This document shows, piece after piece, positions 1 through 3,000 of a DNA stretch of 20,468 bases. This stretch comes from an uncultured Dehalococcoidia bacterium (lineage in GTDB: Bacteria > Chloroflexota > Dehalococcoidia > Lucifugimonadales > UBA3495). The stretch spans positions 1 to 20,468 of the forward strand of contig CATMOE010000060.1 of assembly GCA_950072105.1 (NCBI GenBank), written 5' to 3'. Position numbers: made by a program. Every line of letters begins with the position of its first letter. The stretch's first letter is position 1.

Positions 1-3000
1 CACCAGGAGTCCAAACCCACCACCACTCTCATGTTTTTCTCCCCTTAAAAGTGTCCCATTATCCCTGAACGCCTACACTACTAGGATCGATGCAGCCGCG
101 TCTCTTCGCCGCACCGAACTGAGCCACACTTTGCGCCGCTATTATTTGATTCAGGCAAATCGTGTCCTCCGTATAAGCCCGCGTAACTCGGTCAATCGCT
201 GGCGCCAAGTTCACAATAACCTTCCTCCGCCATACCGCCGAAGGATCAACCGCGGTTATAGATTAGGACCGGCCTAGCACCCAATGTCTATCTTTTCGCC
301 ACGCAAATCAATTCATTTTTTGGTAGAAGTTTAATATTTGTTCAAAGATGACCTTGAAATTCGTTGACATAAGCCGCTCGCTGTCGATAAGGTCAGCTTG
401 CAATAATATATTCAATTTCAGAACGGGATGGAGCCAGGAGGAAATGAAATGATGGTGATACAAGAGTTGACCCTGGAGCCGGTGGAATTTTCCACCATCG
501 TGCAGTGCCGCCACCATTGGATAATAGAGTCTGCGGAAGGTCCGTTGAGCCAAGGGGTTTGTCAGAACTGCCACGAGTTCAAAGAATTCCAGAACTCTAT
601 AGTCGAAGCCGAGAGGGACTATTAATCACACCATCGGCGGCCGGGACGAAGACCCGGTTCCCATGATTCGCGGGTTGATCAGGCCCGCCGGCAAGGTGGA
701 CTTCAAAACAGGGACTGGAACTCCATGCGGATAACCAGTCCGACGGATAGAATCACCGACGATTAGAAGCGTTCGGACTAGACAGGGCCTAAAATTGGCA
801 GCCTGACTGCCGGCGCCATAAGACTGGGAGGTTGTTGAAGATGCGAGTACTTTGGATCGGTTTCGGACAAGCTGGTGGAAAGTTAGCCAACACAATGATG
901 GAGGTGGATCGGAAGCTGTATAGCGCCATCGCCATCAATACAGAGCAAGCAGATCTGGTGGGCCTGGACCACATCAGAGAAAAAGTCCTGATCGGACGAT
1001 ACATCCTTAAAGGCCGGGGAGTTGGCGCCGACATAGAACTGGCGGCCAACGTGGCCGAAAAGGCCTTATCGCAGATCATGGATAGAATCGAGATCCTGGT
1101 ACGCCGGCACGACCCGGAAGCCTTCTGGATCGCCGCCGGTCTGGCCGGAGGCACAGGAGCCGGAGGTGCTTTTGTCCTTGCCAATGAGCTCAAACGAATC
1201 TACAAGAATATACCGGTATACGGGCTTGGCGTGGTGCCGGCCGTAAGCGGCATGCCCTCGGACAAAGAGGCGTTGATCCTCTCAAATACCGTCAAGAGCT
1301 TCGAGTTATGGAACCACTACTTCAATAACATCTTGCTGGTGGACAATCAACAGTACGAACAGCAGATAGTGTCCCGGGAATCGGTGGAGAAATCGTTCCA
1401 GCGGATAAACCGACAGCTGGCTCTGATGTTGACCACCTTGTTAAGCGCGGGCGAGATCAGGCCCTCGCCTCAAGAGGTATTTAGTTCATCGGAAGTTACC
1501 GCCACCATGGGCAACATCGGGGATATATCCACCATCGGATATTGCGGCGAAGAAATCAACCTGAAGTCGCGGCCCTGGAGCAAGAAAATGGAACCCGGCA
1601 CCCATGAACTGGAGAGCATCATTGAGAGAAGCGTGGAGAAATCTGCGCTGACTTTCCCCTGCGACGTCAGCGGCGCAAGGACCGCCGCGTTGATCGTTAA
1701 GGGGCGGCCCGAGCATCTGTTCACTCAGGCGATCGCCAAGGGAAAGTCTCGGCTAGAAGAGATGACCACGGTGGGCAAGGTCCGCTACGGAGACTATCCG
1801 GACCGGAACAGCAAGTACCTGTCTGCCATCACCCTGGTTTCGGGAATCACCGATTTTTCCAGGCTGGATCAGATGAAGCGCCGGGTGCAAGAGTTGGGCG
1901 AGCATCAAGATGCCCCCCAGACAACCTACGGCAATGGTGTAGCTCAGCCGACCGCCGTGTAGAGCCGGTCCCACACCGGTAACCACGGTTTAAGCATTAC
2001 CCACATGAAAGCCCTCGGCGTTGCCGGGGGCTTTTTTCTGTCCAAGCGGGGCGGCCCACCCAACCCCGAACCGCCCCTCCAAGCTGGCCGGTGATATAAT
2101 GGACTCAACTTATTTAGCGAGAGGTACTGATGCGGAGCAGCGAAATTCGGTTGACTGAGCTATCCCACTGCGCCGGTTGAGCGGGTAAGCTTAGTCTTGA
2201 GGACCTGGGTCAGGTCCTGAGTAAACTTCCCCAGATCACTCATCCCGATCTGCTGGTTGGCAATAACACGGGGGATGATGCCGCGGTCTACAAGATCAAC
2301 GACGAAACGGCCTTGATCTTGACCGTGGATTTTTTCACGCCCATAACCGACGACCCATTTGAATTCGGGTCCATCGCCGCCGCCAACTCCTTAAGCGACG
2401 TTTACGCCATGGGCGGTAAGCCCTTACTGGCCATGAACGTTGTGGGCTTCCCGGCGGACCTGGCCCAAGAGATGCTGGCCGACGTACTTCTGGGCGGTTA
2501 TGCCAAAGCAGGCGAGGCCGGATGCATGATCGTGGGCGGACATACGGTGGACGACGCCGAGCCCAAATACGGTCTTTCAGTGGTCGGCGTGGTTGAGCCG
2601 GGCAAGCAAGTATCCAACGCCGCAGCCCAACCCGGAGACCATCTGATCCTGACCAAGCCCATAGGCACCGGTATCATAACCACCGGCGCCAAACAGCAGA
2701 AAGTAGACCCTGACGTCATGAAGAACGCCGTTGAAACCATGGCCACTCTGAACCGGGCGGCCGCCGAAGCCATGATGAAGATTGGGGTAAACTCTTGCAC
2801 CGACATTACCGGATACGGTCTGATGGGGCACCTCAGGGGTATGGTCAGAGCCAGCAAAGTGGGCGCGCGCATCCACTTCAACAATGTCCCGATCCTCCCA
2901 GGGGCATGGGACCTGCTGAAGCAGGGAGTTGTTCCTGGTGGAACCCATCGCAACCTGCAAAACGTGTCGGATACGGCTCGGTGGGACGCGGAGATAACCG

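Follow-up and report, generated by a model that had tools for sequence, protein, structure and literature searches.

CetZ-family tubulins are still called archaea-specific in the accessible text of PMC11621097. In CetZ1 of Haloferax the E218A substitution stabilises the polymers, mutation of E218 blocks rods and motility, and a long amphipathic M-loop (LLSRL) is a feature of the protein, as described in the available portion of 10.1101/2024.04.08.588506. CetZ-like proteins positive for the CetZ_C domain have also been reported from Dehalococcoidia, as sparse paraphyletic groups (Santana-Molina et al. 2023, PMC9871819, partial text); this precedent, already acknowledged in the earlier note on this DNA, stands. 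The accessible sections of that paper do not sort the proteins into clades and do not mention partner genes, changes at the GTP site or a function; here, at least three lineages (A, B/C and D) can be told apart. The literature on CetZ in Chloroflexota and Dehalococcoidia, mostly open-access, available in part and also including PMC13705601 and PMC8456036, yielded neither a study of function nor any partner gene or analysis of the GTP site, and the main texts of PMC12488501 and PMC13319060 do not contain the word “CetZ” at all.

The window, i.e. the whole stretch of 20,468 nucleotides that was analysed, comes from an uncultured Dehalococcoidia bacterium (GenBank assembly GCA_950072105.1, contig CATMOE010000060.1). 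It carries an intact clade-A cetZ gene directly after a small zinc-ribbon gene, both of them located where the earlier note had placed them. The features of this region are:

384..412, + strand: candidate sigma-70-like promoter, TCGATA-17-TATATT, ahead of the zinc-ribbon gene (consensus scan, 9/12)
449..625, + strand: small zinc-ribbon gene g3046, 58 aa, an ORF of an unnamed Chloroflexota family with C20-H22/H23-W24...C38-x-x-C41
626..840, + strand: spacer of 215 nt with the ribosome-binding site GGAGG at 827-831, read from the sequence
841..1962, + strand: g3047, 373 aa, predicted clade-A CetZ-family tubulin-like GTP-binding protein (ORF, profiles, fold)
2007..2037, + strand: intrinsic-terminator-like hairpin with a 13-bp stem, a 3-nt loop and a U-run (fold -25.3 kcal/mol, z -3.1)

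The GGAGG lies 9 nt ahead of the ATG of cetZ-A, and at 29 loci the spacer between the two genes measures 42-273 nt. A structured RNA in the spacer was considered and rejected, its folding being ordinary (z -1.5). Promoter-like sites are by themselves not above chance (3 seen versus 1.6 +/- 1.3 in shuffled sequence), and the hairpin was not called by a consensus terminator scanner. Judged from sequence, the promoter-like site and the hairpin frame the zinc-ribbon gene and cetZ-A as a putative stand-alone two-gene unit. Its surroundings, with labels read from translations, are presumably chromosomal housekeeping genes, among them a selD-like gene and grpE-dnaK. RNA-library contigs from four studies cover g3046, the spacer and g3047, with positions 168-334 uncovered, and in two runs they span the spacer, which does not imply a single transcript. 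As the neighbouring genes are equally covered and DNA carry-over is possible, this coverage is only a hint of expression of the unit. One RNA-library contig starts at 416 with an adapter end there, a weak hint for the promoter candidate.

The protein g3047 exceeds the Pfam cut-offs for both tubulin-type domains of the family, with 70.9 bits for Tubulin (PF00091, cut-off 33) and 105.7 bits for CetZ_C (PF21011, cut-off 21.6). Against the PDB, the structures of H. volcanii CetZ1 (4B46) and CetZ2 (4B45) are matched at E 2.8e-58 and 1.4e-37 and the best FtsZ at 1e-8, which reproduces the values first given for this gene. An AlphaFold2 model (pLDDT 84.5) retrieved 4B46, 4B45 and 3ZID at ranks 1-3 in Foldseek, with a TM-score of 0.78-0.79 by query. 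Profiles and predicted fold together thus confirm the clade-A protein as a genuine CetZ-family tubulin, and both trees place clade A among the representatives of archaeal CetZ (SH-aLRT 97 in one, 84 in the other). Like CetZ1, CetZ2 and the Methanosaeta CetZ (3ZID), it has the same domain pair and a catalytic Glu at the E218 position, and as with the known CetZs the gene is single-copy and lies outside the division cluster. It differs from the archaeal proteins in its bacterial host, in an identity of 30-33% and in forming a long-stemmed clade of its own. With bacterial FtsZ it shares the common superfamily fold (TM about 0.70). An assignment to FtsZ itself was rejected: g3047 scores 57 bits on TIGR00065 (cut-off 295), its T7 loop lacks the NxD / NxDxxD motif, and the real ftsZ sits 3' of ftsA on another contig (C42). 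Strong purifying selection acts on cetZ-A, with dN/dS of 0.02-0.15 in 14 pairs.

The GTP site of clade A has been remodelled at two positions. The T4 loop reads AGGTGAG where the CetZ signature is GGGTG(S/T)G, and among 24 proteins the glycines 103, 104, 106 and 108 are invariant, with Ala in 21, Gly in 2 and Ser in 1 at the T4 Ser/Thr position. In g3047 the T7 loop is QEVFSSSE, in which Asp215 is replaced and E218 is kept. Across the clade the T7 Asp (CetZ1 D215, the position of FtsZ D209) is found in 0 of 24 proteins, which have S, N, A or G instead; E218, which aligns pairwise with E218 of CetZ1, is present in 24 of 24, and the glycines of T1 and T4, the Asn of T6 and E212 are invariant as well. 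The lineages B, C and D retain both the T4 Ser/Thr and the T7 Asp (T7 Asp in 7/7, 27/28 and 12/12, respectively; the T4 loop of clade B reads AGGTGSG). Both residues of the acidic T7 pair D-x-x-(D/E) of the family are present in 7 of 7 clade-B proteins. Loss of the T7 Asp is not peculiar to clade A: of 90 other CetZ representatives, 63 have the residue and 27 do not. In FtsZ, D209 aids GTP hydrolysis; the position is described as conserved in literature available in part. No paper on the effect of changing the T7 Asp was found in the literature searched. Because E218 is kept while the T7 Asp and the T4 Ser/Thr are replaced, slow GTP turnover is inferred for clade A, which would bind GTP, hydrolyse it slowly and make stable filaments. 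The invariant E212 might compensate for the absent T7 Asp.

The same two substitutions, fixed across the clade, could also be those of a catalytically dead or non-polymerising GTP-binding regulator that works with the zinc-ribbon protein or poisons clade-B filaments, somewhat in the way that CetZ2 opposes CetZ1. Clades A and B do occur together in 13 of 140 family genomes. The invariance of E218, of the T1 and T4 glycines and of the T6 Asn, together with the 19 of 32 clade-A carriers in which no clade-B gene was found by query, makes this reading hardly probable.

Outside the GTP site, the resemblance to CetZ1 is limited. The M-loop of clade A is about 14 residues shorter than that of CetZ1 and reads KSRPWSKK, with an invariant Trp246 and no LLSRL, and the tail is variable or absent, whereas CetZ1 has a conserved hydrophobic C-terminal tail and the haloarchaeal sequences end in LEPLF or LESLF. 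Look-alikes of both elements are found in clade B, whose loop reads LLGRF and whose tail reads LPNL, so that by sequence the analogy with CetZ1 is seen to fit the predicted anatomy of clade B better than that of clade A. Orthology of clade A with CetZ1 was likewise discarded, as the clade groups with three unnamed metagenomic proteins (support 99) and not with the CetZ1-like sequences P0122-P0124. Clade A would therefore work like a CetZ yet not be a CetZ1.

Three Tubulin-domain matches exist in the genome, namely FtsZ, encoded after ftsA on C42, a gene on C14 and g3047. The C14 gene encodes the clade-B protein (Tubulin match at C14:8693-9268), which reaches 75.8 bits for Tubulin and 47.2 bits for CetZ_C against the same cut-offs of 33 and 21.6 and is 23% identical to the clade-A protein of the genome. 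The statement that two CetZ-like tubulins of separate clades exist beside FtsZ thus holds, a single clade of A and B being rejected with p-AU 5e-43. Three bacterial CetZ-like lineages were recovered in two quick trees, one of 160 proteins and one of 58: A (support 95-98), B/C, in which B joins (support 100) a group C found across the class, and D, whose sister group is the Nitrososphaerales CetZ. The nearest relatives of clade A outside it are three unnamed metagenomic singletons. The position of B/C differs between the two trees, and a clade made of A and the whole B/C lineage has a p-AU of 0.061, which retains a single bacterial origin; separate transfers of A and B/C into bacteria are likely on these sequence data.

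Among 140 genomes of the family, A was found in 32, B in 64, both in 13 and neither in 57 by these queries; in three of the 32 carriers (G002, G018 and G083) the clade-A gene is apparently frameshifted. A scan with the clade-A alignment across GTDB gave 41 loci, 40 of them in Dehalococcoidia, SAR202 or Chloroflexota and one in an “uncultured bacterium”. In a class-wide sample of 401 genomes, A (at least 55% identity to P0104) is present in 4, any CetZ_C protein in 85 and none in 316, and CetZ_C was found in 0 of 73 genomes of the phylum outside the class. The clade-A gene tree broadly matches that of DnaK, with 11 changes on 90 rows, which implies vertical descent with repeated loss. This pattern points to a gene that has passed down vertically within some members of a single SAR202-type family and in a few other Dehalococcoidia.

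The zinc-ribbon gene upstream of cetZ-A recurs at 26 of 30 family loci and at 30 of 41 loci GTDB-wide, more often than first counted. Its cognate copies share the core C-x-H-H-W...C-x-x-C, in which C, H, H, W, C and C are invariant among 20 aligned sequences, and within the genus they evolve at a dN/dS of about 0.15-0.28. The protein does not reach the cut-off of any family in Pfam or NCBIfam, and its Atlas clusters are unnamed and belong to Chloroflexota. The gene is absent at 11 of the 41 loci, all of them at or below 67% identity and two with less than 400 nt of upstream sequence, and three more stand-alone paralogs bring the genome to 4 copies in total. To call it the “own” conserved partner of the tubulin was therefore an overstatement, while its part as a recurrent neighbour stood. 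In terms of sequence it is a conserved neighbour of a derived subclade and apparently no unique subunit; it is probably a co-transcribed regulator that was recruited late, not an obligatory subunit. A predicted complex of CetZ-A (residues 1-356), the zinc-ribbon protein, Zn and GTP scored 0.13 against a mark of 0.32, which speaks neither for nor against pairing.

In tubR-tubZ systems, which sit on plasmids or phages and come with centromere repeats, a small gene is followed by a tubulin-like gene. The resemblance of this layout to the two-gene unit could suggest a TubZ-like DNA-partition system in which the zinc-ribbon protein serves as the adaptor, and TubZ is a relative of CetZ according to the accessible text of PMC9871819. 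This is highly improbable given the chromosomal housekeeping context, the vertical pattern, the missing small gene beside the deep members and the structural matches of g3047, which reach E 5e-6 for TubZ structures as opposed to 3e-58 for CetZ1.

In the case of clade B, the neighbourhood is even more regular, with a gene of the g1302 membrane-anchored type downstream at 30 of the 30 best loci (from 64 family genomes with B), a higher count than that in the earlier note. In the encoded protein the N-terminal residues S4-R5-x-x-E8-x-R10, predicted to be cytoplasmic, are invariant; they are followed by a single membrane helix predicted at 15-36, a linker rich in Pro and Thr, and an outer domain rich in beta structure. 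This layout makes the protein a candidate membrane anchor, and to our knowledge no membrane anchor is known for any CetZ. For the outer domain, Foldseek gave no match with E <= 0.001, the best Z was 6.8 and the Atlas had no usable match, which does not imply a new fold. Group-C genes of other families adjoin a long helical-repeat gene at 7 of 17 loci and a short one at 5 of 17; neither helical-repeat partner was found in this genome or beside 30 clade-B loci. At a single deep locus of clade A (L166, 1 of 41), cetZ-A immediately precedes the short helical-repeat gene known from the clade-C module (43% identity, E 2e-33), and sequence just upstream weakly matches its long counterpart. This arrangement is a hint that A and C may serve similar scaffolds.

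The archaellum of Chloroflexota is a known system (described by Sivabalasarma et al. 2025, PMC12488501, and by Lim et al. 2023), and complete arlB-G-F-H-I-J clusters were found in relatives of this bacterium. In contrast, the genome studied here has 13 archaellin-like matches, and no ArlI, ArlJ, T2SSE ATPase over the cut-off or A24 peptidase was found in it. The loss of the motor proposed for the host genus is borne out by ArlI in 0 of its 3 genomes and by no T2SSE ATPase over the cut-off. Within the family, the raw co-occurrence of clade A with archaellins could be reproduced, A being present in 18 of 27 archaellin-like-positive and 14 of 113 other genomes, and the corresponding figures for ArlI are 10 of 15 and 22 of 125. 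Clade B has no bias toward archaellin or ArlI genomes. The association of A is stronger with archaellin-like genes than with the motor, and it persists at a smaller size when the genomes are divided by contig number. Contig number, used as a technical covariate only, splits these genomes into a fragmented stratum of 66, in which A is associated with archaellins (15/24 versus 11/42, OR 4.7, p 0.008) and less so with ArlI (OR 3.1, p 0.11), kin being not independent in either comparison, and another in which A is found in 3 of 3 archaellin-positive genomes and 3 of 71 others. A DnaK tree covering 90 of the 140 genomes, in which each genus and the majority of the A and ArlI carriers are represented (DnaK was not matched in G055 and G097), provided 10 independent pairs that differ in A. 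Archaellins change the same way in 4.6 of these and the opposite way in 0.5 (median p 0.125), and ArlI in 2.4 and 0.3, with 7.3 unchanged (median p 0.5).

From such numbers it could be concluded that CetZ-A, like the CetZ1 of Haloferax, positions the archaellum or promotes its assembly and has outlasted the loss of the motor. CetZ1 is the best structural match and, according to the accessible text of PMC13644373, influences motor assembly; both the family counts and the pairs lean in the expected direction. The sign tests are not significant, and ArlI stays unchanged in most pairs. In the class-wide sample, ArlI occurs in 79 of 401 genomes, of which 1 has A, 23 have any CetZ_C protein and 56 have none; with only two genomes of the host family, this sample tests class-wide necessity and not the family trend. 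Conversely, 22 of the 32 carriers of A are without ArlI, including all three genomes of the host genus, and 10 have it. In G009 and G080, both single-contig genomes, A is intact, but archaellin, ArlI and T2SSE over the cut-off are all lacking. The genera are mismatched as well, with ArlI in 4 of 7 and A in 1 of 7 genomes of g27, and A in 16 of 17 and ArlI in 6 of 17 of g7. The surroundings of 42 clade-A loci, followed for up to 8 kb, contained no arl gene. Selection on cetZ-A is not relaxed where the motor is missing, the dN/dS being 0.03-0.15 in 8 motor-less and 0.02-0.14 in 6 motor pairs and tracking that of DnaK, and the M-loop is not of the long type. A role in motor positioning is unlikely on this evidence, and the claim of a CetZ1-like tie between clade A and the archaellum is weakly supported at best, in view of the pair tests, the single A-positive genome among the 79 with ArlI, the lack of linkage and the short M-loop. 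What was observed is a weak, descriptive correlation inside one family, which is not significant once kinship is allowed for and does not extend to the class as a whole. As the association survives the contig split and the pairs lean one way, the direct motility link is weakened; there may be a looser link of A to archaellins, in line with the residual trend of 4.6 versus 0.5 pairs.

The accessible text of Lim et al. (2023, PMC10444878) describes SAR202 bacteria as having an S-layer-like coat and as missing peptidoglycan genes. In the present genome (92% complete) no PBP transpeptidase was found, with one weak Mur-ligase match, and no MreB, the two matches being DnaK and the gene before ftsZ. 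These negatives agree with that account of SAR202, as far as its text is available. Peptidoglycan genes are present in 235 of 244 archaellated Chloroflexota (PMC13319060, partial text), which means that the term “wall-less” cannot be extended to all relatives; the description of this bacterium as wall-less seems right for the genome itself and does not carry over to all its kin. Life without a wall requires neither tubulin, given the 57 of 140 family genomes in which these queries found no A and no B, and the 316 of 401 genomes of the class that gave no CetZ_C match.

A host of this kind could use CetZ-A to assist division or to modulate FtsZ where cells divide without wall synthesis, and a GTPase-poor homologue could conceivably cap or stabilise FtsZ filaments. 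At three deep loci (L162-L164, 3 of 41), cetZ-A indeed lies three genes from ftsZ-ftsA and faces it. These three are close kin and convergently oriented, the other 38 loci have no conserved division gene nearby, and A is missing in 108 of the 140 family genomes. Archaeal CetZs are not division proteins either, all of which makes a function in division very doubtful.

The explanation that accounts best for these data, held with about even confidence, is that clade A is a slow-turnover shape or polarity polymer which was lost together with motility and surface genes and is not a part of the motor. CetZ-A would bind GTP and form protofilaments of slow turnover, and the filaments, lying near the membrane, would help to set shape or polarity where peptidoglycan and MreB are lacking. 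Clade B, as part of the B/C lineage with an intact T7, would do a related job while tethered by its single-pass membrane protein. The co-occurrence of A with archaellins would then most likely have arisen because the same lineages lost genes for shape change, surface and motility in parallel.

A wider reading, improbable as it stands, would be that Dehalococcoidia and SAR202 swapped the lost peptidoglycan-MreB system for CetZ cytoskeletons that were taken up more than once. A and B would be paired in this scheme, with a GTPase-active B filament anchored through a new single-pass membrane protein with a conserved cytoplasmic MRxSRxPE tail and a GTPase-poor, stable, polar A scaffold, which would place the motor in archaellated relatives and archaellin-like surface proteins in the motor-less host studied here.

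Two CetZ-like lineages in one bacterium, their recurrent neighbours and the remodelled GTP site of clade A are real and under-studied. The tempting archaellum story is poorly supported, as bacterial archaella are mostly found without any CetZ. With its altered T4 and T7 loops, clade A offers a natural variant for measurements of polymer dynamics in vitro. As a gene kept under selection at the level of DnaK in abundant marine bacteria, cetZ-A would allow a direct test of how bacteria without peptidoglycan and MreB set their shape.

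Around the clade-A cetZ of the window, further genes can be read, among them a second small zinc-ribbon gene whose family differs from that of the first one upstream of cetZ and which has relatives in 10 of 42 clade-A loci.

Further features of the window (names of the row at 4474-7557 read from translations)
3979-4158, minus strand: second small zinc-ribbon gene, CxxC...CxxC
4474-7557, plus strand: row of genes read as MerR/HspR-like regulator, grpE, dnaK
7677-7961, plus strand: 94-aa ORF of unknown kind, following that row

Positions 1-80 show deep cover and many loose ends among the RNA-library contigs of four runs, which suggests a repeated element or an RNA that is cut by the contig end; tRNA calling there returned no tRNA.

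Among the deep clade-A loci, three (L162, L163 and L164) hold a reduced division cluster that is faced by cetZ, with gene names read from translations, and after the cluster follow a conserved gene of 99 aa and a secreted-looking gene.

about 8001-14350 in L162: mraZ-mraW-ftsA-ftsZ cluster and deep clade-A cetZ (names read from translations)

In another deep locus (L166:1-1868), the gene lying directly 3' of cetZ is the short helical-repeat one that is typical for clade-C modules. The long helical-repeat gene of the same module is weakly matched upstream, and this arrangement of cetZ with clade-C helical-repeat genes occurs in 1 of 41 clade-A loci. The group-C genes themselves (L109, L111-L115 and L128), often present in two copies with the helical-repeat partner genes placed between them, reside within a housekeeping block read as eno-gapA-cetZ-dnaX-recR. 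A third CetZ lineage of Dehalococcoidia, D (L083-L097, L116, L120 and L121), has Nitrososphaerales tubulin/FtsZ-family proteins as its sister group, and in one genome (G148) a C copy stands in tandem with two D copies.

Searches of the window's own genome found no ArlI, ArlJ, T2SSE ATPase or A24 prepilin peptidase, and the sole close ArlH-like sequence in this genome (36% to ArlH) is the product of a fusion gene on contig C18.

C18:20916-22145, minus strand: fusion of an ArlH/KaiC-like ATPase domain with a response-regulator receiver domain

The same genome holds 13-14 archaellin-like genes, dispersed over contigs C3, C4, C9, C10, C26, C31, C33, C63, C67, C69 and C97. This pattern recurs in the other two members of the genus, with 5 and 8 archaellin-like matches and ArlI found in neither. 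Archaellins without a motor may serve as membrane-anchored surface proteins.
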